From: a virus
Taxonomy: Duplodnaviria; Heunggongvirae; Uroviricota; Caudoviricetes
DNA: 62,110 bases
Virus record (IMG/VR): IMGVR_UViG_3300022753_000047
Strand: one strand, 5' to 3'
The position numbers and the translations under genes were made by a program. Of this stretch, positions 9,475 through 50,428 are shown piece by piece (position 1 is the stretch's first letter; every line of letters starts with the position of its first letter). The notes below the pieces were generated by a model, which was given only the letters and a program-made list of their open reading frames with translations, was not told where the DNA came from and did no database searches.

Positions 9475-9477
9475 TAT

Positions 9478-9562
9478 GGGCAGGTGGTAGAGCGGCAATT
9501 ACACCAGACTGTAAATCTGGCGCTTAACGGCTTCGTTGGTTCGAGTCCAACTCTGCCCACCA
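9478..9562 (+). tRNA. tRNA-Tyr(GTA)
   Basis: Cloverleaf with long variable arm; anticodon arm CCAGA-CTGTAAA-TCTGG; encoded CCA. Confidence 0.93.
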
Positions 9563-9600
9563 GATCACACTCCGGCAACCTATGGGTTCTGGGGTTTTAT

Positions 9601-9675
9601 GGCCTGTTAGTCAAGTGGTTAAGACGCCGCCCTCTCAAGGCGGAGACATGGGTTCGACTCCCATACAGGCTACCA
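9601..9675 (+). tRNA. tRNA-Glu(CTC)
   Basis: Anticodon arm CCGCC-CTCTCAA-GGCGG, GGTTCGAC T-loop, encoded CCA. Confidence 0.93.
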
Positions 9676-9682
9676 CATATAT

Positions 9683-9757
9683 TGCGGGATAGAGCAGCGG
9701 TAGCTCACCGGCCTCATAAGCCGTTGGTCGGGGGTTCAAATCCCCCTCCCGCAACCA
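9683..9757 (+). tRNA. tRNA-Met(CAT), initiator-like but atypical
   Basis: CAT anticodon, A11:U24 D-stem pair, GGTTCAAAT T-loop, encoded CCA; has U1:A72 and GGC/GCC rather than GGG/CCC in the anticodon stem. Confidence 0.88.
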
Positions 9758-9839
9758 AGTAAGCGAGCTGGTCGAAAGACCCTGGTTCACCCAACGCCGG
9801 GGAGATTCCCCGTACAAACAAAGAAAGTGAGGTGGCTTT

Positions 9840-10874
9840 GTGCCAAGAAAAACGAAACAAAATGATATCACAAGCCCCGAGCTTTTGAGTCAGATCAATC
9901 CTGAGAACCAACGACTGAAACAGGACTTTATCTCCTATTTGCAGTCCATTCAGCGCAGTCCGAAGACGATCAATGGATACTCCAACGACATTGATATCTT
10001 CTTCGTTTGGAACTTGCTGTACAACGGCAACAAGTTCTTCCCTAAAATCTCAAAGCGTGACTATGCGGCATACCAATACTGGCTTATCAATGAGAATGGC
10101 AATTCTCCGGCCAGAGTGAGACGACTCAAGTCTACGATTTCTTCCATGAGCAATTATGTGGAGAACATCCTGGATGATGAGGAAGAGTTCAAGGGGTTCC
10201 GCTCTACCATCCGAAAAATCGAAAGCCCCGCTATGCAGCAGGTGCGAAAGAAGACCGTGTGGAGCGACGAAGCGCTTGACGAGCTTCTTGACAAGCTGTC
10301 TGCGACTGGTCAGCACAAGAAAGCCTGTATGCTGGCGCTTGCTATGTGCAGCGGCAGACGAAAAGCAGAGCTTTGTCGTTTCAGCGTTGATGACTTCAAA
10401 GACGAGAACCTTGTTTGCGGTGGCGCACTGTATAAGACCAGCGAGCCAATTCAAACCAAAGGCTTTGGCCTTGGCAAGTACATCTATTGCTATACGCTGG
10501 CAAAGAAGTTCAAACCATATCTGGATGCTTGGATGGCCGAGCGGGCGGAGCATGGTATTGAAAGCAAGTGGCTATTCCCATCCGGTGATGATCCTGCTGA
10601 GCAGATCAGCGACACTACCCTCAACAGTTGGGCAACAACCTTTAGTCGTATGACTGGTGAGGATTTCTATTGGCACTCACTGCGGCACTACTTCACAACG
10701 CATCTGGCGAAGGCCGGATTACCGGATGGAGTAATCCAAGAGATTGTTGGATGGGAGTCTGCCGACATGGTTCGTGTCTATAAAGACATGAGCGCAGAGG
10801 AGCAGATCGCACAGTATTTCGGTGAAGATGGTGAAATCAGAACTGATGTGCAGCGTTCGGTCTCCGATCTGTAA
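9840..10874 (+). CDS. Tyrosine recombinase (XerC/D-like with N-terminal SAM-like domain)
   Basis: SGRRKAEL, HSLRH, IVGWES, MVRVY motifs. Confidence 0.9.
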   Translation: MPRKTKQNDITSPELLSQINPENQRLKQDFISYLQSIQRSPKTINGYSNDIDIFFVWNLLYNGNKFFPKISKRDYAAYQYWLINENGNSPARVRRLKSTISSMSNYVENILDDEEEFKGFRSTIRKIESPAMQQVRKKTVWSDEALDELLDKLSATGQHKKACMLALAMCSGRRKAELCRFSVDDFKDENLVCGGALYKTSEPIQTKGFGLGKYIYCYTLAKKFKPYLDAWMAERAEHGIESKWLFPSGDDPAEQISDTTLNSWATTFSRMTGEDFYWHSLRHYFTTHLAKAGLPDGVIQEIVGWESADMVRVYKDMSAEEQIAQYFGEDGEIRTDVQRSVSDL

Positions 10875-31200: not shown

Positions 31201-32675
31201 AAGATTTGAATACACTCCTGTATGCAACTGTGGAAAACACGAACGCAACATGGGGGCTTGTGTATGCAAATCTGGCGCTCCTTGATCTGAACAGCGACCA
31301 GTATCAGGCGGCTTTACACAATATCAACGCTATTCGTGCATTGGCAGATAACGCCATCCAAGGTATTGGCCGGACTGCAGGAACGGTTGAGGAAAACCTT
31401 ACCGAAATGAAGCAAGGTCTGGACGATATTCTCAAGTATGTTATGGATATGCTGCGTCATCGCATTGAACAGCAGATCGATGCCCTTGAGGAAATGAAGG
31501 ATGCTTATGGTGAGCTGATTGAACTCAAGAAAGAGTCTATGGAGGCCACCAAGGAGGAAACCGACTATCAGGATGAAGTTGCAGAAAAGATCAAGCAGAT
31601 CGCTAAACTGCAGGAGCGTATCAACGCCCTGTCTCTGGATGATAGTCGTGACGCTCAGGCACAAAAGGCTCAACTCCAGGAGGAAATGGCCGAGCTCCAG
31701 AAAGAACTTGCTGATACACAGGCAGACTATGCCTATGATACACAGCAGGATTCTCTGGATAAAATGCAGGAGGCTTACGAAGCTGAAAAGGACAAAGAGA
31801 TTGAAATCCTCGAAGAGTCCATTAGCAGTGAGCAGAAGCTGTACGAGATGGCTATCTCCTACATTCAGAGCAACTGGGATACGCTGTATCAGGAGTTGAT
31901 TTCATGGAACACGGAGTACGGTTCTGTGCTGAACTCCGAGATCACCACTGCATGGGACAACTGCCTTGCGGCAGCCCAGCGGTATGGTAGCTATGTCAGT
32001 GCGCTCAACAACATCGATGCAGATATTGAAAGCGCCGGAGGTGGTGGAAACAACATCACAGTTGGCAACACAAACTATGACAGTTCTTCTTCAAAAGAGG
32101 AGAACATTGAGGCAATCATCAACGAGATGTGGAGAAACAGCCGTGCGCATCACTCCGCAAGTACGGAGCAGAAAGCATATCTGAACAAGCGCAACCTGAC
32201 TTTGGGTGCTATGCTGGCTCAGTATGGTATCACTGCTGTTCGTGGTGATGATGGCGTATGGTACATCGACCGTGTCGGTGGTCAGCAACTGTACGACAAG
32301 TACAAGAAGTATTGTTACCATCAGGGTGGTATCGTAGGTGACGAGGGAACTCTCAAGGAAAATGAGGTTCTGGCCAAGCTGGAGCGTGGAGAGGTTATGA
32401 TCTCTAACCGCAACAAGGGCACGCTCTTCTCGCTGATCGAGTTTGTGGATATGCTTTCCAAGAAGCTGGATGTTGCAAGCATGGGTATGATGGAGCGTCC
32501 GTTCATCAAGGATGCAAAGCCCGACCTCAGCAATATCACAAACAACCAGAGTGAGACCATTCATTTTGGTGATGTGTATATCTACGGTGCTGACGAACAG
32601 ACCGTGGAGAAGCACCGTGAGGTAAACAGACAGTTTACCAACGAGGTGCTGAAACAACTGAATATTAAACGATAA
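25257..32675 (+). CDS. Tail tape measure protein
   Basis: 2472 aa, Ala/Glu-rich helical; TP901-type core (DVDTAMTELRKV, SADFARLGYS) and C-terminal YHQGGIVG...ERGE. Confidence 0.95.
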   Translation: MAVSGQDIGLLFGVLGGGRISGESGALIKSQLDSIVASLNNATNSKQRRIKLNLDIAGTKSSFSTGLKQITNGLSGQKQFKIKVSEIDATSAINKLKSQLDAMLKTLSVKNGMTITMPLADGGSIVGDAGAQALEEAKVKAAEYAAQLASIKTIGQSVSSAVKGAMTGNGAIAESEALKGVISDYNKWLQKVEELKASKQALHGKALDDLQAEGVAIVRNIERIREEQRAREEASRASETSDDAYARRISRLNALQKSAATALGYTAAKHTEQYRNIEIANAELQEMATNYTRLTDADLDRLSAQINSNTAQIRSMNLASKSFGDTLLANAKKFTSWLGVSRIIMMIYNSLRKMVVAVKDVDTAMTELRKVTNETEASYISFLDKATSRARELGATISDTVSASADFARLGYSLDDAAMLADAALVYKNVGDGIEDVGTASESIISTMRAFGIEAEGAMFIVDKFNEVGNNFAISSKGVGDALLRSASALAAGNNTLDESIALVTAANSVVQDADKVGTTMKTISMFLRAAKTEAEEAGESTEGMANSVSELRGEILALTGGKVDIQIDEDTFKSTYQIIKELSEVWDELTDISQANILEMIGGKRNSNVVAALLTNFQTAEEVIKTAANASGSALAENEKYLDSINGKVAQFKAAFEELSLNIFDSEMVKGVVDFGTGLLDILNALAKINALLPVTVALVTTIITLRRVNQASAMASSIVYAVTRGLSAESEEVKALTLSYAALTAARQKDVIAVVSARLAQQGLTKEEIAAKLATLGLTAATGGQTAANYGLAASFKAVLLSNPFGWIALALSLLPGVISWIKSLNKSVDELEEEYSELATTINDAASSFRSLKKEADQTIPRFVELAKGVDKFGKNVSLTDEEYAEFLELNNRIAEMFPEINMGMDSNGNAMLALSYSADTLTDSLMALVEAERAAANEEIAKTMPDVLTNIKETNDAYLDEIDDLRDIQDEYEDVYDDFVNRRLPTNIGRYSTMEAGEAAAREFIKKAEELGIHGSVMVDNQQTTNNGYVFSVEWDYTPLEDAGQAFLMPYIDEQYEIAIEKYDKLIDDYQARMKAKWEQLNPVVGSWMQTDFMFQDLNGQMQEIAEVMISGLDFSELGLTTQEEVQQYVDDNIVEPLFLAAPDVKEAFAQITDWREQLANGELSEDDFASKVTEAFDGIFASTLPENAEAFKQIFVAAFNEMGIAGSDFGSVLAGLIDEWTGNTEAAATYSAELSVLTDTISALQESYDLLAKAQEEMSGGGGLSVDTIEALAKAEENYLDYLYEENGVIKLNTEAWKENANAKMSGDIAEIQKEIAALQEERAALQADLAEYEANRQLGNDGGIWSSLIAETTTKLEENSAAILENQGLLALYSSIYGDITGDLDAYSAALNNFSNIANTIDTVSDSFATLANLQAEVADGFTISLEKALEFASVYPEILNSATATSDGQIALNEGVVNSFITGKKAELDAQVDAEIAKLEADKAVLTAKMQSAQAQLELAKNVGEGEGQIAKEVAEYRINTGNALTAALIEMGVEESKAHALAAAAMAENEEEFARVAKECFENMDENAAKAAYNMAHSIFVNASNSCDSIADIAQQAHDTAKAIAAMGNGEVAGSGVSQFDGADGTTTGGLSLDLYKGDFKGSDYDYEANTIDLDEYVAQIELDISAYENAIAQIDGQIATLQALKNLPLKSFVSDTTSGSKDSDSKEVEEYVADIEKYREALERLNDVRIKKADLELELENAEDLDEQIRIEKELLGVYRAEQECLEEINGLRDETIANGVKALEQLGFQIDYDPDNNKFFVKNLEHLNDLTADSVGKYGSLQEATNALRKDTEELIDTLEELNAENQEDQDTWQELYHTIREAKINIVNNLKEIVSQASEAVDEIQNVYDTLKDAADEYAANGGFISVDAFQAIVELGPEYMQYLRDENGLLVINEEAINRVIAAKTEQLALESAMSYIERLRLALQTESIEDLNTLLYATVENTNATWGLVYANLALLDLNSDQYQAALHNINAIRALADNAIQGIGRTAGTVEENLTEMKQGLDDILKYVMDMLRHRIEQQIDALEEMKDAYGELIELKKESMEATKEETDYQDEVAEKIKQIAKLQERINALSLDDSRDAQAQKAQLQEEMAELQKELADTQADYAYDTQQDSLDKMQEAYEAEKDKEIEILEESISSEQKLYEMAISYIQSNWDTLYQELISWNTEYGSVLNSEITTAWDNCLAAAQRYGSYVSALNNIDADIESAGGGGNNITVGNTNYDSSSSKEENIEAIINEMWRNSRAHHSASTEQKAYLNKRNLTLGAMLAQYGITAVRGDDGVWYIDRVGGQQLYDKYKKYCYHQGGIVGDEGTLKENEVLAKLERGEVMISNRNKGTLFSLIEFVDMLSKKLDVASMGMMERPFIKDAKPDLSNITNNQSETIHFGDVYIYGADEQTVEKHREVNRQFTNEVLKQLNIKR

Positions 32676-32744
32676 GCGGTTGGAGGGAGATTTTTGTAGT
32701 CTCCCTCCTCTGCAATATAAAAGCAATGGGAGGTGAGATGCAAG

Positions 32745-33533
32745 GTGTTCAATACCTATGAATTTTCTTTTGCCGGAGAGTCCTCATTGATGTATGGACT
32801 GATGGTGTATGACATTGGCGGCACAAGCCAGAGCAATGTGAGTTTTGGTAATACCGCTTCTATCGTGGAGACACGACTGAACAACAGAATTCAGCCCATT
32901 CACTTTGGTGTGAATTATCACTCCAAGCCTTTGGAGTTCAAATTAGTATTTGGTTCTGACAGAGCGCTTGACCGATACGAACTGGAAAACATCAGCTTTT
33001 GGCTGACCGGGCATCAGGACTATCAATGGTTGTCCATTGACCAACCGGATTTGGAGCGTGTGCAGTTCCGGTGTTTGATTACATCTCTGACCCCGCTCGC
33101 TCATGGGTGGCTCCCCGTTGCATTTGAGGCTACGGTGCGGTGTGACTGCCCGTATGCCTACGGTTTCCCGTTTGAGAAGAGCTATCAGATCAAAGGAACG
33201 ACCAGAGTCCTGTTCCGAAACGAAAGCTCCATGCGGGAATATTTGAAGCCTGTGCTTACATTCAAGCCTGCCAGTGGCGTGACCGAGGTTAAGGTTGTCA
33301 ACAAGAATGATAATGACCGTGAGTTTTCTCTAAGCGGAATGCCTGCGGCAGAACTCAACATCCGGGTGGACAACGCAAATGGCATCATTCAGGAACTCAA
33401 CAATGGGTACAACCTGTACGATGGTTTTAATCTGAACTTTTTCCGCCTTGTACACGGCGACAATGTTTTGGAAGTGACCGGAGATGGCGTGCTCACGATT
33501 TCCGGTAGGTTCCTTTACAATGTTGCAGGATAA
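32745..33533 (+). CDS. Distal tail protein (Dit)
   Basis: Follows the TMP; FEATVRCDCPYAYG and FFRLVHGDNVLEV motifs; GTG start with SD GGAGGTG. Confidence 0.8.
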   Translation: MFNTYEFSFAGESSLMYGLMVYDIGGTSQSNVSFGNTASIVETRLNNRIQPIHFGVNYHSKPLEFKLVFGSDRALDRYELENISFWLTGHQDYQWLSIDQPDLERVQFRCLITSLTPLAHGWLPVAFEATVRCDCPYAYGFPFEKSYQIKGTTRVLFRNESSMREYLKPVLTFKPASGVTEVKVVNKNDNDREFSLSGMPAAELNIRVDNANGIIQELNNGYNLYDGFNLNFFRLVHGDNVLEVTGDGVLTISGRFLYNVAG

Positions 33534-33545
33534 GGGGGGTACAGA

Positions 33546-36500
33546 ATGTTTCTTGATTATTCCAAAATCGAGTTTGAAACAAGCGGCAGACCGGAGGTGC
33601 CTGAGCTTCAGTTACAGACACTGAGCGGCGACATCATCGGCATTTTGAGTGGCGTATCAGACCTGCGCTTCAACATTAAGTTTTCTGAACCCAGCGAAAT
33701 TTCCTTTACTATCCCCAAGGTGCTGGATGATGATGCTAACCCCCTGTACGGTGCGGTGACAGGTCATAGGGTCATTTACACCAAGCATTATGGTATTTAT
33801 ACCATTATGAACCCGGAAACTGAAGCCGATGGCATTTCTGATGTAAAGCAGGTTCGTGGCTATTCTCTGGAGAAAACACTTGATTCCAAGCGGTTCTTCC
33901 TTGAGGAGGGTACATTCAATTTCTGGAACCCTGCTTCCCCGACAGACACGGTTCTTGGCCGCATTCTGGAGCTGGCGCCGGATTGGTCGGTTGGATATGT
34001 TTCTCCATCTCTGATCGGACGCTACCGCACCTTTGACTCTTTTGATGACTATCTGCTGTCTTTTGTCTATAACACCGTGCCGGACAAGTATCGTTGCGTC
34101 TTCGTGTTCGATCCGTACAAGATGACCATCAGCGTGTATGATGCCGACGAGACCAGACCGACACTCCCTATCTATCTGGATTTTGACAATCTTGTTCAGC
34201 AGATCACTGTTGAGGAAATCAGCGACGAGTTGGTGACTGCGCTGCGACCCTATGGCGCCGATGAACTGGATATCCGTAATGTCAACCCTATCGGAAGCAA
34301 CTGGATTTATGACCTGTCTTACTTCATCGAGAACGGCGACATTAGTGGCTCTCTTGCTGAGAAGTGGCAGGAGTGGCAGCGAAGCGTCCTGAACCATCAG
34401 GCTTTGTACAAAGGTCTGGTTGCATTGAGAGCGTCTTCCACTGCAAGACTGCTGACAGAACAGGCAGCTTTAATTGACCTTCAAGGTGAGTTGGAAGACC
34501 TCACAAATCAGCAGAGCATTACTATCCAGACTCTTGCTACCGAAACAACGAGTGCTGGCAAGCAGAGTCAGCAGCAACTGTTGAATGAAATCAACGCAAA
34601 GATCAAAGCGAAGAAAGCAGAGATTGCTGCAAAGGAAAGTGTCATCGAAAGCATCGAAGCAGATTTGGATACAGACGATCCAGCTTCATACGGTGGTCGT
34701 ATCAAGGCCATTACAGATGAATTGGCGTTCTCGTCCTATTTCACGAAGGAAGAGCAATCTGTTCTGTCTCAGTATCTGATTGAGCAGGACATCACAGAGT
34801 CTACCTTTGTTGCAACGGATGTGGATACCAGTGTATCCGGCAGCACCTATTCGTTCAATAGTGGCGCTGTCAGTATTTCCGGTGCAGATATTCTTGAGGT
34901 GGATTTCTCCACCGATTTCAAAAAGAGAATGTTCACTATTTCCGGCGGCACATTCACTATCTCTGGCGATATGAATATTTCCGGAGATGTGATTCGTGGC
35001 ACGCTGGAAGTTCCAAACAGCGGGCAGGCTGTTATGAGCCTGTACGCCGGTTCCATTGCCGTTAATGACAAAACGGCGGCAAGCGGTATGATTACTGTGA
35101 CAGGTACGGCAAGCGGTCTGAGTACCGATGTTCGCAAGGTGACCGTGGACGGTATCACCACTTACGAAGGAAGCAAACTGCAATTCAATGTGGCATCCTC
35201 CTCGCTGTATCTGACGGCAAATGTGAGTGAATACCAGAAATACTCCGTGCAGATGGAGTTGTTTGATTATGCGGCGGGCGTACTCAGCGATCTTGCAACG
35301 CCTACCTATGAGTTCTCTGTGGACTCTGCAAACTTCATATTCGCACAGGAGTTTGCCCCATTCCGCAACAGCCTTGAACTTGGTAAGGCGGTCTATCTCC
35401 TGATGGACAATCAGAAGATTATCACCCCTATCATTATCGAGTTTGAGCTGAGCTTCGAGGATCGTGAGAATTTCTCCATTGTGTTCTCCAACCGCTTCAA
35501 GCGGCATGACAGCGTCAATACGCTGAAAGACATGATTGAGACAAGCTACTCTACGAGCAGAAGTTTTGATGCGAACAAATATATTTATAACCAGGCAACC
35601 AGTCAGGCATCCTCTGTATCAAAGTTTATGCAGAGTTCTCTGGATGCGGCAGTCAACAGCATTGTTGCTGCGGCCAATCAGAGTGTGCTTATCAATGGTG
35701 CGGGTATTCATGTTGGCGGTAACTCCAACTATCAGCTCCGTATCATCGACAGCATGATTGCCATGACCGATGACAACTGGTCAACTGCCAAGCTGGCAAT
35801 CGGTCTGTTTGCAACCGAAGATACTGGCACCTACTTTGGTGTCAATGCCGAAGTGATCGGCGGCAAGCTGATCGTCGGCAACAACCTCATCATTGAGAAC
35901 GAGAATGACTATGGCGTGATGCAGTTCAAGGTGGATGCTACAGGAGCGTGGCTGAACAATGCCACCTTTATTCTGCAGAGCGACAGTGTTGCCAGAAGTG
36001 CTGGCGGTAAAATCATTCTCGACCCCAGATACGGTATTGTCGCAGGTAATGGTGATCTGTTCGATACAGAGGGTACAACGGTCACTCCGTCCTTTATCGG
36101 AAGTGATGGTGACATTGAACTGGACGATGATGGTATTCCTACCAATGCAAATTTCTATCTCGACATTCGGGATGGCAGTGCATACTTCCGTGGCACTGTG
36201 AATGCTACGAGTGGCGAGGTTGGTGGATGGACTTTGGCTGAAGATTACCTGCATAGCGGCAGTGGTTCTACCTATGTGGCGCTGAATGCATCCGGCACGA
36301 ATAATGCTGCTTATGCAATTTGGGCAGGTGCATCTAACCCCGCAAACGCTCCGTTCTATGTGAAGCGTGACGGCAGTTTGTATGCGAAGACGGGCACATT
36401 CAAAGGCACTTTGGATGCAGCAAAGCTGAGCGGTAATCTGACTGCGGATTCAAAGACAGGCGGCTGGCTCATTGGTTGCGGTATCAATGTGAATAGCGGC

Positions 36501-37496
36501 GCTTTCTATGTCGACCAATCTGGTAATGTGACTATGAAAGGCGGCATCAATTTGGCTGGCAACATCACATGGTCTACCTCAAACAGCCCTTGCCAAGCCC
36601 TTTACTCAACAGTGTATTTAGCTGCTCCGAGTGGATCATACGCTTCACATCCAACCACTGGTAGTTCATCATGGCATCGCACATTATCCAATTCGGACAA
36701 GTATGCATCCTATACCTATGATGGTGGTTCTACCTGGACTGCGGCAATTCAAATCAGAGGCGAAGACGGCGAAGATGGTCGTGACGGCGTTGACGGCAGT
36801 GATGCAACGGTCAACGAACGAAATGTGTTCAATGTCCTGACAAACGGTGGAACAAAGTTCGGTATCTTTAACGACTCCACTTCCAACAAGTTATATATTA
36901 ACGCAAGTTATATTCGTTCTGGCATTATTGACGCTGACCTTATTACGCTTGGCAGTGATTGGGGTGGTTTCTGTTGCGCAATCGGTAACGATGGTACAAG
37001 CGACACTTATGGGTCAATGATGTATGGTAGTGATCCTGACTTTTATTTCATTGCTACAAACAAAGGCGTTCGGATGCAGTCTGAAGATCATGGACTGACT
37101 GTTACAAACAGTGGCATTTTTGCTGATGAGGAAATCACAGTAAGTTCTGATAGACGCCTCAAAACTGGAATTGCTTATCAGATGAATAAATATGAAGATT
37201 TCTTCATGCGCCTGAAACCAACACAATTTCAGTATAAAGCTGGTGCGTCTGGTCGGTTTCATACAGGTTTTATTGCACAGGATGTCGAAGCGGCGTTGAT
37301 TGAAAGCGGACTGTCTACCGATGAATTTGCTGGATTGGTTATCACACCAGTCATTGAAGTAAACAAAAAGGATGGCATTGAAGATTGCTATCATCGCCTG
37401 AGATATGGCGAGTTTATTTCTTTGAATACATACATGATTCAGAAGCTGTATCGCAGAATCGAAGAGCTTGAGGAAAAGCTACACAACATAACCTGA
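33546..37496 (+). CDS. Tal/central tail spike with C-terminal peptidase S74 intramolecular chaperone
   Basis: 1316 aa after Dit; coiled-coil middle; C-terminal SSDRRLK...FIAQDVE...LRYGEF. Confidence 0.85.
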   Translation: MFLDYSKIEFETSGRPEVPELQLQTLSGDIIGILSGVSDLRFNIKFSEPSEISFTIPKVLDDDANPLYGAVTGHRVIYTKHYGIYTIMNPETEADGISDVKQVRGYSLEKTLDSKRFFLEEGTFNFWNPASPTDTVLGRILELAPDWSVGYVSPSLIGRYRTFDSFDDYLLSFVYNTVPDKYRCVFVFDPYKMTISVYDADETRPTLPIYLDFDNLVQQITVEEISDELVTALRPYGADELDIRNVNPIGSNWIYDLSYFIENGDISGSLAEKWQEWQRSVLNHQALYKGLVALRASSTARLLTEQAALIDLQGELEDLTNQQSITIQTLATETTSAGKQSQQQLLNEINAKIKAKKAEIAAKESVIESIEADLDTDDPASYGGRIKAITDELAFSSYFTKEEQSVLSQYLIEQDITESTFVATDVDTSVSGSTYSFNSGAVSISGADILEVDFSTDFKKRMFTISGGTFTISGDMNISGDVIRGTLEVPNSGQAVMSLYAGSIAVNDKTAASGMITVTGTASGLSTDVRKVTVDGITTYEGSKLQFNVASSSLYLTANVSEYQKYSVQMELFDYAAGVLSDLATPTYEFSVDSANFIFAQEFAPFRNSLELGKAVYLLMDNQKIITPIIIEFELSFEDRENFSIVFSNRFKRHDSVNTLKDMIETSYSTSRSFDANKYIYNQATSQASSVSKFMQSSLDAAVNSIVAAANQSVLINGAGIHVGGNSNYQLRIIDSMIAMTDDNWSTAKLAIGLFATEDTGTYFGVNAEVIGGKLIVGNNLIIENENDYGVMQFKVDATGAWLNNATFILQSDSVARSAGGKIILDPRYGIVAGNGDLFDTEGTTVTPSFIGSDGDIELDDDGIPTNANFYLDIRDGSAYFRGTVNATSGEVGGWTLAEDYLHSGSGSTYVALNASGTNNAAYAIWAGASNPANAPFYVKRDGSLYAKTGTFKGTLDAAKLSGNLTADSKTGGWLIGCGINVNSGAFYVDQSGNVTMKGGINLAGNITWSTSNSPCQALYSTVYLAAPSGSYASHPTTGSSSWHRTLSNSDKYASYTYDGGSTWTAAIQIRGEDGEDGRDGVDGSDATVNERNVFNVLTNGGTKFGIFNDSTSNKLYINASYIRSGIIDADLITLGSDWGGFCCAIGNDGTSDTYGSMMYGSDPDFYFIATNKGVRMQSEDHGLTVTNSGIFADEEITVSSDRRLKTGIAYQMNKYEDFFMRLKPTQFQYKAGASGRFHTGFIAQDVEAALIESGLSTDEFAGLVITPVIEVNKKDGIEDCYHRLRYGEFISLNTYMIQKLYRRIEELEEKLHNIT

Positions 37497-38161: not shown

Positions 38162-38569
38162 ATGAATACGAACTATTTTCTGAACTGCGTGGCGGGCAAT
38201 CTGTTCCAGACCAAAACCTCTCCCGCAATGCCCACCAAGTATTACATCGGTCTGAGCACAACTGCCCCTGCCGTTGATGGTACTGGCGTAAACGAGCCCT
38301 CTGTGGACGCCGGTTATTCCCGTGTGGAACTGACTTCCCTCAGCACTCCTGTTGATGGCGTTGTGACCAACACGCTGGCAATCAACTTTGAAGAGAGCAC
38401 TGCAACCTGGAATACGATTACTCACTTCGTAATCTACGATACTGCTGATGTTGACAGCGGCAATTTGCTGATGTACGGCGAGCTGTCCACTCCCAGAGCG
38501 GTTGAAGCCGCTACGATCATGACCATCAAAGAGGGTTATCTGAAGCTGTCTGCACAGAACCCCGCCTAA
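38162..38569 (+). CDS. Tail/baseplate protein
   Basis: YIGLSTTAP...EPS...YSRV motif common in phage tail proteins; strong SD. Confidence 0.65.
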   Translation: MNTNYFLNCVAGNLFQTKTSPAMPTKYYIGLSTTAPAVDGTGVNEPSVDAGYSRVELTSLSTPVDGVVTNTLAINFEESTATWNTITHFVIYDTADVDSGNLLMYGELSTPRAVEAATIMTIKEGYLKLSAQNPA

Positions 38570-41509: not shown

Positions 41510-43183
41510 ATGGCTAATGTTATGTTCAAGAAGGGCTTACTGGCCAACCTGCCTGCCAGCTATGCCGAGGGCACTTTCTATGTGACCACCGACGAGCGTG
41601 CCATCTATCTGGATGTTGACAACTCTACTCGCATCCGCATTGGCGACTTCCAGGAGTTCGCTACCCTGGAGGCTCTGCAGGCCAACAGCAATCCCAGCAC
41701 TTCTGCTCTGTACTACATCTCCGGCCTGAATGTTCTGGCCAAGTGGAATGGCACTGACTATGTCCAGATCAACCTGGATACCGGCGCTACCTCTTTCGAG
41801 GTTGTCGGCGAGGGCAATGCCATCACCTCTGTTTCCTACAATGCTACTACTCGTAAGCTGACCCTGACCAAGGGCGAGACTTTTGCCACCAAGGCTGAGT
41901 TGAACGCTCTGGATGCCCGTGTTGGTGCTATCCCCGAGGGTTACACCGAGGAGACTATCGTTGCCTACATCAACAAGAAGGCCGAGGAGACCCTGAATGC
42001 TGCTTCCGGCGGTTCTTCCGAGTCTGCCGCTTCTGTTCTGGCTGCGCTGAATACCTACAAGTCTGAGAACGATCCCAAGGTTACCGACCTGCAGACTCGC
42101 ATGGCTGCTGCCGAGGGCGAGATTGATGCCCTGCAGGCTATTGACCACGAGGCTTACATTGCCGCTGACGAGCAGGTTCTGGCCGATGCCAAGGATTACG
42201 CTGAGGAGCAGGCTGGTGCAGTTGATACCAAGCTGACCGAGGAAGTCAATCGTGCCAAGGCCGCAGAGGAGGCCAATGCCGCCGCTGCCAAGGCCGCTGA
42301 CGATAAGGCTGTTGCCGCTCAGGAGGATGTGGATGCTCTGGCTGAGAAGGTTGGCGAGGTTCCTGCTGATAAGACTGTCGTTCAGATGATCTCTGACGCT
42401 CAGACTGCAGCTACCTACGATGACACTCAGGTTAAGGCTGACATCGCTGCCAATGCTGAAGCCATTCGTGTTGAGAAGGAGCGTATGGATGCCTTCATGA
42501 CTCTGGAGGATGGCGAGACCCTGAACGCCGCTCTGGACAGCCTGAAGGAGATTCAGGACTTCATCACCAATGAGGCTGCTGACGCTGATGTCTTGCTGGG
42601 CAAGGTTTCTGCTCTGGAAGCTATCGTTGCTGGCATCGGCGGCGAGGGTGAGCCCGCAACTGTGGTCGCTTATGTGACTGCTGCTATCGAGGCTCTGAAG
42701 ATCGGCGACTACGCAAAGGCTGCTGATCTGACCGCTCTGGCTGATCGTGTTGCTGCTATGGAGGCCAAGGTTTCCAACTGGGATGCCGCTGAGCAGAATG
42801 CCAAGGATTATGCCGATGGTTTGAACACTGCTATGGACACCCGCGTTAAGGCTCTGGAAGAGATCGACCACGACGCCTATGTCGCTGCTGACGAGCAGGT
42901 TCTGTCTGAGGCTAAGGCTTATGCCGACCAGGCTGAAGCTGATGCCCTGGCTGCCGCCAAGGAGCACGCAAACGGTCTGGACGCTGCTATGGATGCTCGT
43001 GTCGATGCCCTGGAGGCTATTGACCACAACGCCTATGTTGCTGCCGACGCCACCAATCTGCAGGCAGCTAAGGACTATGCTGATGGTCTGGCTGGCAACT
43101 ACGATGCTTCTGGCTCTGCCGCTGCCGCTGAGGCTGCCGCAAAGGCTTACACCGACAACGCCATGGCCTGGGGTTCTTTCTAA
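41510..43183 (+). CDS. Coiled-coil tail fibre subunit
   Basis: N-terminal FYVTTDERAIY module; Ala/Asp/Glu-rich internal repeats (IDHxAYxAAD x3); ends AWGSF. Confidence 0.75.
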   Translation: MANVMFKKGLLANLPASYAEGTFYVTTDERAIYLDVDNSTRIRIGDFQEFATLEALQANSNPSTSALYYISGLNVLAKWNGTDYVQINLDTGATSFEVVGEGNAITSVSYNATTRKLTLTKGETFATKAELNALDARVGAIPEGYTEETIVAYINKKAEETLNAASGGSSESAASVLAALNTYKSENDPKVTDLQTRMAAAEGEIDALQAIDHEAYIAADEQVLADAKDYAEEQAGAVDTKLTEEVNRAKAAEEANAAAAKAADDKAVAAQEDVDALAEKVGEVPADKTVVQMISDAQTAATYDDTQVKADIAANAEAIRVEKERMDAFMTLEDGETLNAALDSLKEIQDFITNEAADADVLLGKVSALEAIVAGIGGEGEPATVVAYVTAAIEALKIGDYAKAADLTALADRVAAMEAKVSNWDAAEQNAKDYADGLNTAMDTRVKALEEIDHDAYVAADEQVLSEAKAYADQAEADALAAAKEHANGLDAAMDARVDALEAIDHNAYVAADATNLQAAKDYADGLAGNYDASGSAAAAEAAAKAYTDNAMAWGSF

Positions 43184-44168: not shown

Positions 44169-46124
44169 ATGCCTATTTTATCAAACTTCCCCGGTGGTAG
44201 CGGTTCAGGCAGCGGCGGTCTGGCTCTTGCTGCTGTTTCCGGCATTACCACGCTGGTTTCTTCCGGCAAAGTCTATGTGAAGTGGACTGACCCCGATGAT
44301 CTGGTCGTTGCTGATTCCACACTGGCCGCTTGGGGCGGCACTCTGCTGGTTCGTAAGGCAGGTTCTATGCCCTCAAGCCGTCGTGATGGCACCATTGTGC
44401 TGGACAGCACGACCCGTAACGCATACACCAATTCCTATTTCTGTGATAGTGGTCTGACTGATGGTGTGACCTACTATTACAAGTTCTTCCCATACACCAC
44501 GACTGGTACATATACCGACAGCACCGATGACGAGTTCAGCGCAACCCCTACGGCTCAGGTCGCAGGTATCTCAAGCTGGGTCGTTACCAGTATGTCCGCC
44601 TCTTCTGAAGCTGGCGACGGTAAGATGACCATCAAGTGGACTGATCCCGCAGCTACAATCACCTCTGACGGTGTTACTCTGGCAACCTGGGCAAGCACTA
44701 CTGTTGTTGTCAAGGCTGGCAGCTACGCCACCAGCAAGGATGATTCCAGTGCTGCTTACACGCTAAAAGTAACTACTCGCAATCAGTATTCCAGCACTGC
44801 TCTGACAGTGAGCGGCCTGACCAATGGTACGAAGTATTACATCAGCTTCTTCCCCGAGACTACGGATGGCGGTATCAACACCGCTACCTCCCAGAGAACG
44901 ACTGGTACGGCCAACCGTATCTCCATCAGCACTACGCCCTCTCAGAGCGGTACGCTGACCTACAACGGTAATTCCCAGTCTCCCTCCTGGAGTAACTACA
45001 GCACTACTCAGTTGACTCTGGGTGGCACCACTTCTGGCACAAACGCTGGCAGCTACAATGCCACCTTTACTCCGAAGACAGACTATCGTTGGAGCGATGG
45101 CACTACGACTGCAAAGACGGTTGCCTGGTCTATTGGTAAGGCTGCAGGTTCTCTGACTCTGAGCACCTCAAGTGTTACGCTGAACGCCAGCACCACGAGC
45201 ACCACAGTCACTGTGACTCGTGCTGGTGATGGTACGATCACTGCAACTTCCGACGCTACAAGCATTGCGACTGTCTCTGTCAGTGGTAACACCTTGACCA
45301 TTAAGAGCGTGAATGATACCACTGGTACTGCCACGATCACGGTCAAGGTTGCGGCAGGCACGAACCACAACGCTCCGTCCAACAAGACGATTGCTGTTAC
45401 TGCACAGTTCCTGCCCGACAAGAAGACCTTGGAGAATACCACATGGGAAGAGCTGAGCCAGATTGCTAAGGCTGGCAAGGTTGCCGATTACATGACCAGT
45501 AGCGGCGGTTCATGGGCTATTGGCGATACTAAGAGCATGAGCTTCAACGGTACGACCTACTATGTACAGCTTATTGGGACTGAGCATGACACACCTTCCG
45601 ATACTTCTGCCTATGGTCAGAGCAAGGCTGGCTTGACATTCCAGTTCGGTGTTGCCAACGATAGCAGCAAGAATGGTATGTACGCAACAACCTATCCCAT
45701 GAACAGTTCTAACACCAACTCTGGTGGTTGGACAAGCTGTGTGATGCGCTCTACAACCATGGGCACCATGAAGGGCTATCTGCCCACGGAGCTGCAGAAT
45801 GTGTTGGTAGCTGTCAATAAGCTGACTTCTGCTGGCTCTCAGAGCTCCACCATCAACACGACAAGCGATGAGCTGTTCCTCCTGAGTGAGATCGAAATCT
45901 TCGGTTCCACAACCTATTCTTTTGCTGGCGAGGGTACGCAGTATGCGTTCTATTCTGCCGGTAATAGCAAGGTGCGTTACAGAAGCGGCTCCTCCTACGG
46001 CTGGTGGGAGCGTTCTCCTTATTCGAGCAACAGCGCTAATTTCTGTATTGTCAACACCGGCGGCGGCGCCGGCAGCTACATCGCCGGCAACAGTGGTGGC
46101 GTGTCTTTCGGCTTCTGTATTTAA
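44169..46124 (+). CDS. DGR target: receptor-binding tail fibre (2x FN3-like, Ig-like, C-terminal variable domain)
   Basis: Two KWTDP...SGLTxGxxYY repeats, Ig-like segment, C-terminal WWERSP...GVSFGFCI containing the VR. Confidence 0.92.
   Translation: MPILSNFPGGSGSGSGGLALAAVSGITTLVSSGKVYVKWTDPDDLVVADSTLAAWGGTLLVRKAGSMPSSRRDGTIVLDSTTRNAYTNSYFCDSGLTDGVTYYYKFFPYTTTGTYTDSTDDEFSATPTAQVAGISSWVVTSMSASSEAGDGKMTIKWTDPAATITSDGVTLATWASTTVVVKAGSYATSKDDSSAAYTLKVTTRNQYSSTALTVSGLTNGTKYYISFFPETTDGGINTATSQRTTGTANRISISTTPSQSGTLTYNGNSQSPSWSNYSTTQLTLGGTTSGTNAGSYNATFTPKTDYRWSDGTTTAKTVAWSIGKAAGSLTLSTSSVTLNASTTSTTVTVTRAGDGTITATSDATSIATVSVSGNTLTIKSVNDTTGTATITVKVAAGTNHNAPSNKTIAVTAQFLPDKKTLENTTWEELSQIAKAGKVADYMTSSGGSWAIGDTKSMSFNGTTYYVQLIGTEHDTPSDTSAYGQSKAGLTFQFGVANDSSKNGMYATTYPMNSSNTNSGGWTSCVMRSTTMGTMKGYLPTELQNVLVAVNKLTSAGSQSSTINTTSDELFLLSEIEIFGSTTYSFAGEGTQYAFYSAGNSKVRYRSGSSYGWWERSPYSSNSANFCIVNTGGGAGSYIAGNSGGVSFGFCI
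45986..46117 (+). repeat. DGR variable repeat (VR), 132 bp
   Basis: Ungapped alignment to 46877-47008; 20 mismatches, all opposite TR adenines (13 A>G, 6 A>T, 1 A>C). Confidence 0.98.
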
Positions 46125-46145
46125 CCCTATAACCCAATGGTTGCG

Positions 46146-46222
46146 GGCTGTCTCACTCCGTACAGGAGTGAACAGGCCGTTCTTTTATTGTCTCAGGCTA
46201 CACTCTCCCCGTTTAGGGGAGA
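46146..46222 (+). other. Hairpins downstream of VR (putative DGR target-recognition cruciform)
   Basis: TCACTCC-GTACA-GGAGTGA (46153-46171) and TCTCCCC-GTTTA-GGGGAGA (46204-46222). Confidence 0.65.
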
Positions 46223-46267
46223 TGTGTATGCCTGCGATGATACAAGGTTGTAGGGTGGTTTGCGATT

Positions 46268-46297
46268 AAAGGTGACCCTCCTTTGCGGTAATGGGTG
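46268..46297 (+). repeat. Conserved element, copy 3, upstream of avd
   Basis: AAAGGTGACCCTCCTTTGCGGTAATGGGTG, 26/30 identical to the reverse complement of 63-92. Confidence 0.75.
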
Positions 46298-46331
46298 GCC
46301 TATAAACAATTTTGAATGAAAGGGTGAAATC

Positions 46332-46805
46332 ATGTCGGTTTACAAATCCAGGCGAGGAACCAGTGCCGTGCAGTATGTGGAAACAGCCAGACAGTTGCAG
46401 ATTTTTACCATCAGCAACTGTGTTAAGTTTCCCAAGCGGTATACCTACCTCGTCGTCAACAAACTTGCGTCCCTTGCGGAAGATATTGATACCCATGTGC
46501 GTATTGCGGAAGCGATTATGCCAACCAATCTGCATGAAGCGCAGATGCGTCGAGATGAGTTTAATCTTGCTTTCGGCTTACTCAACAGTTTAGACGATAA
46601 GCTGCAGCTCATGTATGACATCGTGAAGAAAAATCCGAACTGGAAGACGGAATTCAAATGGCTTCCTAACGCAATGCTTGAGTGGGGCAATTTGATCCAA
46701 AAGGAGAAAAATTTAATTGTCGGAGTTAAGAAAACAGACCGCAAACGGTTCAGTAAGTTCACGACCGACGAAGATGTGGAAGCATCTATTTCAACTGAGG
46801 AATAA
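46332..46805 (+). CDS. avd: DGR accessory variability determinant (four-helix bundle)
   Basis: MSVYKSRR N-terminus, KFPKRYTY motif, 157 aa, located between VR and TR. Confidence 0.88.
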   Translation: MSVYKSRRGTSAVQYVETARQLQIFTISNCVKFPKRYTYLVVNKLASLAEDIDTHVRIAEAIMPTNLHEAQMRRDEFNLAFGLLNSLDDKLQLMYDIVKKNPNWKTEFKWLPNAMLEWGNLIQKEKNLIVGVKKTDRKRFSKFTTDEDVEASISTEE

Positions 46806-46876
46806 GCAGTAATGCTTTTCTTAGGTCAAGCCTCGTCCTTGTTCTCGTTGCGTGTTTTTTGCAGCCGTGGGTTTCT

Positions 46877-47008
46877 CGGCTCCACCAACAACTGGTGGGA
46901 GCGTTCTCCTAATTCGAGCAACAGCACTAATTTCTGTAATGTCAACACCAACGGCAACGCCAACAACAACAACGCCAGCAACAGTAATGGCGTGTCTTTC
47001 GGATTCTG
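46877..47008 (+). ncRNA. DGR template repeat (TR), part of the DGR RNA
   Basis: 39 adenines, 15 AAY codons in the VR frame; identical to VR at every non-A position. Confidence 0.97.
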
Positions 47009-47258
47009 CGGTACATAGTCAATCAAAGTAACCTAACCAAGGCGAAATTTGTACTTCCGCTGAAGGGAGGCTTGTTCCTGTGGCTTGTGCATACAAGCCC
47101 AAAACAGTGTGTCGATAGTCTACACCGGACGCTTCTTGCATGGTCGGCAAAGGCGTGGTAGCCGATTTCATGGTGGGAGACTTACGCAGTTAGAATACAC
47201 GCTCCATAACAATACTGTACGGCGCACCCAAATCTATATAAGGAAAGAAGGGTTAGAT

Positions 47259-48410
47259 ACGACCAGCGAAGAGCGTAAAGAGGCGCGATATCAGCGCAGG
47301 AAAGCCGCTCGCCAAGCAAAGCGTGACGCATTAAGTGAAGCCTGCGGCAATTTTGAAGAGGTGTTTACCTTTGAGCATTTGTACGATTCCGCTAAGAATT
47401 GTTCAAAGGGCGTCATGTGGAAAAACAGCGTTCAAAACTATATGAGCCGAATCACAACGAATGTAGCAGATACGCATGAGAAGCTGATGAATGGAAAGTT
47501 CAGGAGCCGTGGATTCCACGAATTTGATTTGATAGAGCGAGGTAAGCTCAGACACATCAAGAGCGTGCATATCTCAGAGCGTGTGGTTCAACGCTGTTTG
47601 TGCGACTACATACTGGTCAAGGTATTCTCAAACTCTTTTATCCACGATAATGCGGCCAGCCTGAAAGGCAAAGGGATTGACTTTGCCATGGATCGTGTAA
47701 ACACGCATCTGCACAGGTTTTACAGGCAGCATGGTGTTAGCGGCCTGATGAATGGCGCCGTTCTAATGGGCGATTTCTCTGATTTTTTCAATAGTTCACC
47801 GCACGACATTATTTATGTAGAGGGTGAACGGAGAATCAAAGATGAGCGCATACGAAAATTGGCGAATGGGTTCATGGAGGACTTTGGCGACAGAGGTTTT
47901 GGCCTTGGCAGTCAGGTTTCCCAAATCGATTCTCTGATGGTGGCAAGTCCGCTTGACCACTTCATCAAGGAAAAGCTCCGCATCAAACACTATGGCCGCT
48001 ATATGGATGACTTCTATCTCATCCACGAAGACCCGGAATATCTCGCCTATTGCATGGAGGAGATAAAGAAAAAGTGCGATGAACTCGGCCTTAATCTGAA
48101 CAAGAAAAAGACAAGAATCATCCCACTTAGAAACGGATTTAGGTTTTTGAAAACGAAATTCGTTCTGACTGAAACTGGCGCAGTTATACGCAAGATGAAC
48201 CGTTCCTCTCCCACAAGAATGAGGCGCAAGCTAAAGACATTCAAGCGTTGGATGGAGGAGGGTAAGTTTACCATTGACGATGTGAATACAGCCTACCAAA
48301 GCTGGCGTGGTCACATGAGGCGTGGCAATAGCACAAAGATACTGCGCAGAATGGACAAGTTCTTCAATGAACTATTTTTGGAAACCGAGGAGGTAAGAAA
48401 AAGTGCTTAA
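47259..48410 (+). CDS. DGR reverse transcriptase
   Basis: RT motifs GKLRHIKS...ERVVQ, GDFSDFF, GLGSQVSQ, YGRYMDDF, LNKKKT, FLK; frame open from TTG 47085 but the best SD precedes ACG 47259. Confidence 0.95.
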   Translation, partial: TTSEERKEARYQRRKAARQAKRDALSEACGNFEEVFTFEHLYDSAKNCSKGVMWKNSVQNYMSRITTNVADTHEKLMNGKFRSRGFHEFDLIERGKLRHIKSVHISERVVQRCLCDYILVKVFSNSFIHDNAASLKGKGIDFAMDRVNTHLHRFYRQHGVSGLMNGAVLMGDFSDFFNSSPHDIIYVEGERRIKDERIRKLANGFMEDFGDRGFGLGSQVSQIDSLMVASPLDHFIKEKLRIKHYGRYMDDFYLIHEDPEYLAYCMEEIKKKCDELGLNLNKKKTRIIPLRNGFRFLKTKFVLTETGAVIRKMNRSSPTRMRRKLKTFKRWMEEGKFTIDDVNTAYQSWRGHMRRGNSTKILRRMDKFFNELFLETEEVRKSA

Positions 48411-49065
48411 GATTTGTAAAGACGGCAATGTCATCGCCCTGTGCGAAGCTCCCCGCTGGATTCGTATGCAGGAGAATGGTTATTTCGGTGCCTGCTCTGA
48501 GGTTGAGGCCGAAGGTATCGTAATCAACGACATGATCTACAACATTCCCGGCCATGACATCGGCGCCGCTGAAACGGTGTCCTATGTTGAGGTGGACAGC
48601 GGCGAGTATATTTTCAGCCAGCAGGAAGCTGCTGCTGTCAATGATGCGGCTGTGTCCTTTGTGAAGATCATGATGCCCACTGTCGAACTGGATGACGACC
48701 AGATGATTACAGTGTCTGCTCTGTATGATGACTGGGCTGCGGGTGCTTATGTTGTTGGTGATGTGCGCAATGCAGAGGGTCAGACCTGGGAGTGTCATCA
48801 GGCACATGATAACGCAGTGTACCCCGACATCGTTCCCGGCTCTTCTTCATGGGCTACTTTCTGGAGACCCCTGCATGGTAAGACCCCTGAGACTGCCCGT
48901 CCCTGGTGCAAGCCTGTGGCAGGTACGACTGACATGTACCATGTTGGCGAGTACATGATCTACACCGACAGCGCTCTGTATCTGTGCATTGTTGATACCG
49001 TGTATTCTCCCGAAGAGTATGCACAGGCATGGGAAAAGCAGGGCGAAGATGAAGTCACAGAATAA
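48403..49065 (+). CDS. Tail-associated protein with C-terminal CBM5/12-like aromatic repeats
   Basis: WAAGAYVVGDV...WECHQAH...PG....W and YHVGEY...YLC...SP...AW motifs. Confidence 0.65.
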   Translation: MLKICKDGNVIALCEAPRWIRMQENGYFGACSEVEAEGIVINDMIYNIPGHDIGAAETVSYVEVDSGEYIFSQQEAAAVNDAAVSFVKIMMPTVELDDDQMITVSALYDDWAAGAYVVGDVRNAEGQTWECHQAHDNAVYPDIVPGSSSWATFWRPLHGKTPETARPWCKPVAGTTDMYHVGEYMIYTDSALYLCIVDTVYSPEEYAQAWEKQGEDEVTE

Positions 49066-49108
49066 GTATAAAACTGGACTTTCATCAGTGTAAATGGGAG
49101 GTGTTGTG

Positions 49109-50428
49109 ATGTCGATTGAGAAAACGATATGGGATTTCTTCCATGGAAAAGGCTTGAACGACTATGGTGTGGCGGGTCTGATGGGTAACCTGTACGCAGA
49201 GTCTGGCCTGATACCCAACAATCTCCAAAACACCGGCAACAAGAAACTCGGTATGACAGACGCCGAATATGTAACTGCCGTTGATAATGGCTCATACAAA
49301 AAGTTTGTCAAGGATTCTCAAGGCTTCGGTCTGGCACAGTGGACTTTTTGGTCTCGCAAGCAGGCTTTGCTGGACTTCGCAAACAGCCTTGGAGTATCTA
49401 TCGGAGATTTGAATATGCAGCTCAATTTCCTCTGGAAGGAATTGACTGAGAGTTACAGTGGCGTTCTGAGTGTGCTCAGGAACGCTTCTTCTATTTTGGA
49501 GGCATCTAACGCCGTACTGTTCAATTTTGAGCGACCTGCCAATCAGGACGAGAGCGTCCAGAGAAAGCGTGCCAGCTTTGGACAGGTCTATTACGACAAG
49601 TATGTTTCCACACCTCAAACGGAAGGAGTGGTTAATTTGACTGCTGTTGAAAGAGTTATCGCCACGGCTAAGAGCCAGGTCGGTTATCTCGAAAAAGCAA
49701 GCAATAGCCAACTCGACAGTAATACTGCAAACGCAGGCAGAAACAACTGGACGAAATATGCCAGAGACCTGGATCAGCTCGGCGTGTACAACTTCCCAAA
49801 GAATGGTTATGCCTGGTGCGATATGTTCGTGGACTGGTGCTTCGTGACTACCTTCGGTGTTGAACTGGCATGGAAGATGACCAATCAGCCTATGAAGGGT
49901 TGCGGCGCAGGCTGCACATATTCTGCCCAGTATTACAGAAACATGGGGCGCTTCCATAAAACCAACCCCCAGCCCGGAGATCAGATTTTCTTCTCTGAGG
50001 ATGGCGGTGCAACCTCTTACCATACCGGCCTGGTTGTTGCTGTGGACAGCAAGCGGGTCTACACAATCGAGGGTAATACATCAAGCGACCCCGGTGTTGT
50101 TGAGAACGGCGGATCAGTAAATGAGAAGAGCTATTCTCTCTCATACGCAAAAATCGGCGGCTACGGCACGCCCGATTATTCTCTTGTGGAGGAGGAAGAT
50201 GACATGGATGTGAAGCGGTTTGAGGAACTGTGGCTGGAGTACAGAAAGAGTCTGCAGGACAACGACGCAAGTCAGTACAGCGAGCAGGCTCGGCAGTGGG
50301 CTGTGGACAACGGTCTGATTGCTGGTAACAACGCCACAGAGTTTAACGGGATGTGGCAGGATATGCTGACCCGTGAGCAGTTCGTGACTGTTCTGTTCCG
50401 CTTTGCTCAGTTGATGGGCAAGGCATAA
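49109..50428 (+). CDS. Multidomain endolysin: phage-tail-lysozyme + CHAP + SLH-like cell-binding domain
   Basis: GLMGNLYAESGL and GLAQWT (lysozyme); WCDMFVDW...HTGLV...IEGNT (CHAP); QWAVDNGLI...TREQFVTVLFRF (SLH-like). Confidence 0.88.
   Translation: MSIEKTIWDFFHGKGLNDYGVAGLMGNLYAESGLIPNNLQNTGNKKLGMTDAEYVTAVDNGSYKKFVKDSQGFGLAQWTFWSRKQALLDFANSLGVSIGDLNMQLNFLWKELTESYSGVLSVLRNASSILEASNAVLFNFERPANQDESVQRKRASFGQVYYDKYVSTPQTEGVVNLTAVERVIATAKSQVGYLEKASNSQLDSNTANAGRNNWTKYARDLDQLGVYNFPKNGYAWCDMFVDWCFVTTFGVELAWKMTNQPMKGCGAGCTYSAQYYRNMGRFHKTNPQPGDQIFFSEDGGATSYHTGLVVAVDSKRVYTIEGNTSSDPGVVENGGSVNEKSYSLSYAKIGGYGTPDYSLVEEEDDMDVKRFEELWLEYRKSLQDNDASQYSEQARQWAVDNGLIAGNNATEFNGMWQDMLTREQFVTVLFRFAQLMGKA

Follow-up and report, generated by a model that had tools for sequence, protein, structure and literature searches.

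A BPP-1-type diversity-generating retroelement with an RT-2 spacer RNA in a large phage encoding a YonO-type RNA polymerase

Introduction

Does a phage that encodes its own RNA polymerase (RNAP) also carry a complete diversity-generating retroelement (DGR), which protein does this DGR rewrite, and is it at work in nature? The question is raised by positions 44169-48410 of a 62,110-nt viral DNA (Caudoviricetes; IMG/VR virus record IMGVR_UViG_3300022753_000047), hereafter the window, i.e. the whole stretch that was analysed. From its letters alone the region had been read as a complete BPP-1-type DGR, arranged target-avd-template repeat (TR)-reverse transcriptase (RT). The BPP-1-like RT, the Avd fold of the accessory protein and the pair formed by TR and the variable repeat (VR) bear this out, and we conclude that the window very probably carries such a complete DGR in the late (tail-to-lysis) block of a large temperate YonO-encoding siphophage, itself probably infecting Oscillospiraceae. 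One part had been missed, an RT-2 RNA recognised by Rfam, so that the order becomes target-avd-TR-RT-2 RNA-RT. The parts of the cassette, their order, the adenine-specific VR/TR pattern and the natural VR alleles are demonstrated below, whereas the role of the variable protein and the present state of the RT gene call for a longer discussion.

Results and discussion

VR (45986-46117) and TR (46877-47008), 132 bp each and on the + strand like all the parts of the cassette, form a direct repeat that aligns without gap at an offset of 891 nt. Counted base by base they differ at 20 positions, all 20 occupied by A in TR (13 A>G, 6 A>T and 1 A>C); as TR contains 39 adenines, the hypergeometric probability that every mismatch falls on an A column by chance is 3e-13. 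VR lies in frame at the 3' end of the open reading frame (ORF) 44169-46124, at residues ~607-650 of its product. Read in this frame, TR holds 15 AAY codons, 8 codons with a single non-synonymous A and one synonymous GGA, and no change of an A can ever yield a stop; five AAY codons have undergone the double change to GGY in VR. On all these counts our recount agrees with the original prediction. Both strands of the window were scanned for a further TR-like target, and none was found elsewhere.

The 3' ends of the repeats are unlike, GGCTTCTGTATT in VR and GGATTCTGCGGT in TR, as had also been noticed before. In the window and in 22/22 relatives examined, VR ends with an invariant GC-rich block followed by GGCTT where TR has GGATT, and the homology between the repeats stops about five bases further. 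The two ends thus differ, at the sequence level and as candidates for the function, in the way expected of an initiation of mutagenic homing site (IMH, in VR) and its TR counterpart (IMH*). The single A>C mismatch (46112 in VR, 47003 in TR) belongs to this difference: it is constant between VR and TR in the same 22/22 relatives, and is a lineage-wide discriminator of IMH and IMH* rather than a product of mutagenesis. The earlier claim of 20 changes at TR adenines therefore stands for the positions, and has to be corrected for one of them, the fixed marker: 19 of 38 mutable adenines are changed. Accordingly, the mutable part of VR extends from 45993 to ~46096 and its IMH-like GC-rich end, with the fixed C at 46112, covers ~46097-46117, while the 39 adenines of TR divide into 38 mutable ones and the IMH* marker at 47003.

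Is this pattern the trace of a single past event, or does VR keep changing? We compared the window with relatives of the target, of which IMG/VR contains 80, and with contigs of four public faecal runs, one of which, X9, comes from a separate 2024 study. The contig of one relative, L001, is 95% identical to the window over 14 kb. Between 46165 and 48900 (2.7 kb) the two show six differences and their TRs are identical; their VRs differ at 16 positions, 15 of them at TR adenines. The 4.35-kb contig of X9 covers 44608-48410: its 22 differences all lie within 45993-46086 and all at TR-adenine sites (p 8e-15), with zero differences outside VR over 3.8 kb. In the other three runs VR is the same as in the window, and these runs may belong to the campaign from which the window itself was obtained. 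At the scale of the lineage, 1322 of the 1340 VR/TR mismatches counted over 75 loci are at TR adenines, and in the 13 groups of loci that have one and the same TR nearly every VR is distinct, 291 of 296 variable VR columns being adenine columns. Adenine-directed diversification of VR beside a constant TR is thus found on natural alleles compared between samples, which is an indirect record of the process. Read from sequence, these alleles bear the mark that mutagenic retrohoming leaves in natural populations, and the DGR is demonstrably active in its lineage in nature. The joints and loose ends seen around TR in X3, X8 and X9 were not used: they are short-sided and come from other TR-like sequences of the metagenomes.

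In four of the relatives the main VR/TR pair is preceded, ~5 kb upstream, by another adenine-biased one, at 3022-3141/3929-4048 in L070, L071 and L072 and at 1972-2091/2879-2998 in L076. This points to the presence of two DGR cassettes or of an additional target served by a TR of its own.

The RT gene (47259-48410) encodes 383 aa when counted from an ACG codon at 47259, and matches Pfam RVT_1 and phrog_1423 (2e-85). Its best match in the PDB is the RT of the BPP-1 DGR (8UB7_A, E 1.6e-19), with group II intron RTs far behind at 1e-6. It carries the motifs of the DGR clade, GLGSQVSQ, which fits the [LIV]GxxxSQ of motif 4, and YMDD. The RT stop is overlapped by 8 nt by a 220-aa ORF (48403-49065), which lies between RT and the endolysin gene and has a marginal PHROG match.

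The spacer between TR and RT is filled by the RT-2 RNA (Rfam RF03077; 47014-47247), which scores 143.3 bits for a gathering threshold of 40 and covers the whole model (1-222 of 222); it begins 6 nt past TR and ends 11 nt ahead of the RT start-codon position. The same RNA occupies the TR-RT spacer in 10/10 relatives and in the phages Taranis and Shimadzu, i.e. in 13/13 cassettes examined, the window included. Weinberg et al. (2017) attributed RT-10 alone to the spacer of the BPP-1 DGR, and speculated that other RT motifs belong to other DGRs. RT-2 is likely the counterpart of the BPP-1 Sp region (RT-10 in Rfam), and its place in the 13 cassettes ties this orphan Rfam motif to the TR-to-RT spacer of DGRs.

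Between target and TR lies the gene of the accessory protein, Avd (accessory variability determinant; 46332-46805), 157 aa predicted as a four-helix bundle of the Avd fold with a basic C-terminal tail. Neither single-sequence nor profile searches of this protein against Pfam and the PDB gave a match, and Foldseek by itself gave none at E 0.001 or better; bAvd was found through a second-look structure aligner alone.

The spacer between target and avd contains two hairpins and a conserved motif. The first hairpin (46144-46179), GC-rich and followed by a T-run, lies 20 nt past the target stop and folds as DNA at -17.5 kcal/mol (z -5.4). Nearly all relatives have a GC-rich hairpin with a loop of 4-5 nt at the same position; their sequences differ and the T-run is often absent. 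A hairpin flanking VR was reportedly described for BPP-1 by Guo et al. in 2011, and that of the window fits. Being just 3' of VR, it is a candidate for the hairpin or cruciform recognised in DGR targets, for an intrinsic terminator, an equally possible reading, or for both. The second long hairpin (46195-46233; fold z -5.1) has similar ones in the closest relatives L003, L006, L052 and L069. A match to mir-975 (46186-46244), with 20 bits for a gathering threshold of 90, is due to chance and reflects this second hairpin.

The motif, GGTGACCCYCCTTTGCGG (18 nt, 46271-46288), stands 44 nt upstream of avd. The window contains three exact copies of it, the two others being on the - strand at its left end (72-89 and 1331-1348), when 0 are expected from 100 shuffles; the ORFs near these left-end copies belong to no Pfam or PHROG family. 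A related motif is found upstream of avd in many divergent relatives whose spacer is otherwise not conserved, in some of them as two copies ~63 nt apart. We rejected the idea that the 18-mer is itself part of a hairpin, since its 3' halves show no covariation from one relative to another. A sigma-70 scan revealed no promoter-like site upstream of avd or of the target. A shared upstream control element had been proposed at this place: the three copies and the conservation are real, and for the control role our guess is that GGTGACCCYCCTTTGCGG may serve the avd-TR-RT unit as a promoter or as an operator.

What is the protein that VR belongs to? The target (44169-46124, 651 aa) starts with a conserved Gly-rich peptide, continues with four tandem beta-sandwich domains of the FN3/Ig type (residues ~24-412), and ends with a DUF6273 domain (Pfam, E 3e-13, residues 509-637) that contains VR; its PHROG match is phrog_37900. 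An AlphaFold2 (AF2) model has a pLDDT (predicted local distance difference test) score above 90 for residues 20-420, for which Foldseek returns arrays of four FN3 domains as top matches, those in the BFVD being labelled "tail collar fiber protein". The C-terminal domain is modelled at low confidence, and an Atlas search re-confirmed DUF6273 alone. In the literature DUF6273 is read as C-type-lectin-like, and the function of the DGR targets carrying it is regarded as open (PMC10743442, PMC11792537).

The target gene closes the tail module, downstream of the genes for the tape measure (25257-32675), Dit (32733-33533) and a Tal-like protein (33546-37496), and is followed beyond the DGR by an endolysin gene (49094-50428). 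The Tal-like protein, 1316 aa long, ends with a Peptidase_S74 intramolecular chaperone, and a Gp80 domain (podophage GP4 fibre I) is present in a small protein encoded at 38162-38569; therefore the DGR target need not be the primary receptor-binding fibre of this phage. The 557-aa protein encoded just upstream of the target operon (41510-43183) has no family match; diverged repeats of 82-94 nt make it Ala/Asp-rich and coiled-coil-like, and it could plausibly be a fibre shaft.

The Tal-like and Gp80 proteins lend some weight to a reading in which the DGR is real and its target is not the fibre that binds the host receptor, but a monomeric decoration or auxiliary adhesin with a role similar to that of Hoc or of the tentaclins: it would bind variable glycans carried by mucus, by other cells or by secondary structures of the host, the Tal fibre ensuring primary adsorption. 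An FN3/Ig array in which we recognise no trimerisation module, a weak PHROG match of the target to a Hoc-like head decoration, the two other fibre candidates and the open function of DUF6273 targets all go in this direction. On the other hand the gene ends the tail module and not the head module, the viral structures that match best bear the annotation of tail collar fibre proteins, and the phage DGR targets studied so far are mostly tail receptor-binding proteins, as established for Mtd of BPP-1. We regard the auxiliary role as a serious possibility, yet one on the less probable side, and the target as most likely a putative virion-surface adhesin. The FN3/Ig stalk of the earlier description is thus retained, while its "receptor-binding fibre" is an inferred role for which the phage encodes other candidates.

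A second question concerns the RT. Its reading frame is open upstream of 47259 up to a TTG at 47085, which the mechanical ORF list took as the start; this codon lies inside the RT-2 RNA, and in most relatives the frame is closed upstream by stops in the RT-2 region. The homologous start is at 47259-47261, just after RT-2, where 28/28 relatives have an ATG and the window has ACG. The original prediction of a DGR RT is thus right for the enzyme, and its start has to be moved to this position. The Shine-Dalgarno sequence (GAAGGG, 6 nt upstream of the ACG) is intact, and the next canonical in-frame start downstream is a GTG at 47361. The ACG is common to L001 and to the contigs of all four runs. 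Candidates for the initiation of RT synthesis are thus a weak use of the ACG, the TTG at 47085, from which translation would cross RT-2, and the GTG at 47361; as judged from the sequence, the RT supply in the ACG lineage is probably low.

Could the cassette be a DGR recently disabled or strongly throttled, in which the change of ATG to ACG abolishes RT synthesis, or all but abolishes it? The alleles of VR would then be older than the mutation, or would be the work in trans of RT-Avd from related phages resident in the same cells or communities. The contrast of the ACG with the ATG of 28/28 relatives, behind an intact Shine-Dalgarno sequence, speaks for it, and so do the metagenomes in which other TR-like sequences are present at high depth: in X3 the TR bin has a depth of 371 against 57 for its flanks, and therefore related DGR phages co-occur, so that an RT supply in trans by co-resident related phages may exist. 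However, the window, L001 and X9, all with the ACG, have three VR alleles that differ at A sites only, and X9 is unchanged outside VR over its 3.8 kb. Besides, the RT frame is otherwise intact and has kept its catalytic motifs, and a foreign RT-Avd would have to recognise the TR/RT-2 RNA of the window. We thus hold a disabled DGR to be unlikely. As the three alleles of the window sublineage all stand on an ACG background, the simplest view is that retrohoming continued after the change of the start codon.

As to an ordinary duplication whose copies diverged with an adenine bias by chance, nothing speaks for it except that a repeat exists, and we consider it already refuted, its probability being negligible, by 20/20 mismatches on 39 A columns (p 3e-13, as above), by a TR that is the same between strains though VR differs, and by the adenine pattern of 75 loci.

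Some points nevertheless weigh against the reading that we favour, an active BPP-1-type DGR diversifying an adhesin. The RT has no canonical start at the position conserved in its family, and activity of the DGR at the present day in this very genome is therefore putative. The data from the runs are assembled contigs, so that the differences in VR are between samples and not within one sample. The C-type-lectin fold of the target C-terminus is taken from the literature, our own model of it being of low confidence, and the Tal-like/S74 and Gp80 proteins are alternative receptor-binding candidates encoded in the same window.

With an active DGR as the preferred reading, the mechanism may be proposed as follows. 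The RT-Avd complex would bind a transcript running through avd, TR and RT-2, in which the RT-2 structure would serve, like the spacer RNA of BPP-1, as scaffold and primer. TR would be copied into a cDNA with random misincorporation opposite adenines, and this cDNA would home to VR and take its place, with the invariant GC-rich IMH end and the hairpin downstream as guides. Since the guidance would depend on this hairpin and on the IMH end—GGCTT in VR, GGATT in TR—TR itself would, in this proposal, never be overwritten. Homing would rewrite ~23 codons within the last 45 residues of the DUF6273 domain, which is carried by the stalk of four FN3/Ig domains.

It might further be imagined that the DGR of this YonO-phage lineage is regulated at two unusual levels. 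The motif upstream of avd (~20 nt), which also marks two sites of the leader region at the left end, would be a phage-specific promoter or operator gating TR-RNA, Avd and RT to a given stage, possibly through the transcription machinery of the phage, and the ACG would throttle RT translation. We hold this idea to be unlikely. If true, the ACG would set a low and tolerated rate of retrohoming rather than kill the element, and the two levels together would make the frequency of DGR mutagenesis a tunable, evolvable trait. The ACG start is also a natural experiment on the effect of RT dosage on retrohoming.

What phage carries this cassette? The prediction of a YonO-type phage is confirmed by an 864-aa single-chain RNAP encoded at 4483-7077 (+ strand). 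By tblastn it is 25-27% identical to yonO of the SPbeta group (E 1e-26 to 1e-29, residues 73-560) and 40-42% identical to the homologues of Enterocloster phages and of phage c-st, and it contains the Asp-triad motif MDKDGD. YonO in SPbeta transcribes the late structural and lysis operon (PMC5467207); that the RNAP of this phage likewise transcribes the DGR target is something we only infer. A YonO homologue is present in the full contigs of 7/10 relatives, among them each of the three whose completeness is put at 90% or more (100-141 kb). The twin contig of the window is rated 52% complete. The copy of one relative (L013, a provirus; G002:C1:41861-43846) has an in-frame TAG and a match that starts only at query residue 200; the gene may be broken, or the cause may lie in the assembly or in recoding.

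Isolates of Oscillospiraceae contain homologues in prophages. In Dysosmobacter segnis BX15, Flintibacter muris DSM 110149 and strain CCNA10 the contig with the target homologue also bears a YonO-type ORF, ~40 kb away as in the window. The left part of the window contains two genes for tyrosine recombinases of the integrase family (1767-2594 and 9840-10874), which, together with the relatives classed as proviruses, fits a temperate lifestyle. Just upstream of the second one stand four tRNA genes (9399-9754), with a DUF3800-XI RNA motif immediately after them (9764-9811, 60 bits for a threshold of 37.8). We consider the phage to be a temperate siphophage with a genome of ~100 kb or more, probably infecting Oscillospiraceae. 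In D. segnis BX15 (G012; contigs C2, C18 and C20) at least three full-length RTs of DGR type match that of the window (E 1e-112 to 4e-52), and therefore several DGRs sit in one host.

The combination of YonO and a DGR had been pointed out as the notable part of this locus. Both are present and travel together in the relatives, and the combination is not general to YonO phages: no match to the DGR RT was found in five deposited ones (PMBT24, CB473P2, c-st, TR-TP1 and MT835469; SPbeta not searched), while the same search found it in 5/5 relatives used as positive control. Because relatives and prophages share both and these five YonO phages lack an RT match, the combination is a trait of an Oscillospiraceae-associated lineage. 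In the literature we found only an unrelated co-mention of YonO and DGRs, and no description of a DGR in the large YonO-encoding gut phages of Oscillospiraceae. To these phages the present analysis adds a DGR that is naturally active in its lineage, and it points to the cultured lysogens—D. segnis BX15, F. muris DSM 110149 and strain CCNA10—as experimental systems. Its useful contributions are RT-2 as the RNA of a DGR spacer, an IMH marker that is fixed, an ACG as the start of RT, the link with YonO across the lineage and candidate hosts that can be cultured; the known mechanism of DGRs is unchanged by these findings.

Comparison with known systems

The RNAP has its homologues in SPbeta, in the Enterocloster phage PMBT24 and in the Clostridium phage c-st, all large temperate phages of Firmicutes like that of the window and encoding the same single-chain two-barrel enzyme (25-42% identity).

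With the reference DGR, which Bordetella phage BPP-1 carries (mtd-avd-TR-brt; 8UB7, 4DWL, 1YU0), the differences bear on several parts. The spacer RNA is RT-10 in BPP-1 and RT-2 in the window; the target is the trimeric beta-prism Mtd in the former, an FN3 stalk with DUF6273 in the latter; BPP-1 Avd and the accessory protein of the window have no detectable sequence similarity; and the RT of the window has an extra basic N-terminal segment of ~35 aa. The tentaclins resemble the target of the window (PMC10743442): these DGR targets of gut phages, proposed to be flexible adhesins, combine a DUF6273-like C-type lectin with Ig-like domains. However they are built in the reverse order, with the lectin domain that contains VR at the N-terminus, Ig domains after it and an anchor Ig at the C-terminus, whereas in the window the FN3/Ig domains (24-412) come first and the VR domain is C-terminal; the target is thus not a tentaclin by its architecture.

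The DGR of the Roseburia phage Shimadzu has an RT 45% identical to that of the window, preceded by an annotated Avd and by the RT-2 RNA (145 bits). The target of Shimadzu, by its annotation a P2-type tail fibre, differs in this from that of the window, and its Avd is marginally similar by BLAST (E 0.065).

As a whole the cassette is like that of the Faecalibacterium phage Taranis and its relatives Roos and Pioen (Cornuault et al. 2018; PMC11792537), for which this type of cassette, joining a target that ends in DUF6273 to this family of Avd, to RT-2 RNA and to RT, has been described. As in the window, a target with VR in its C-terminal DUF6273 is accompanied by an Avd-like protein, TR, RT-2 (175 bits in Taranis) and RT. 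The accessory protein gp70 of Taranis aligns with Avd of the window at an hhalign probability of 100%, the three targets are 40% identical to ours over residues 207-651, and the Taranis RT is 33% identical. Taranis differs by an Arc-like gene between target and accessory gene, and by its genome, 54 kb long, with P2-type baseplate genes and no YonO match by tblastn. The phage of the window is about twice this size, siphovirus-like by its Dit and Tal, encodes YonO and starts its RT at an ACG. The type of cassette and its mechanism being already known, the novelty is modest: the element is a Taranis-type cassette in a new genomic setting.

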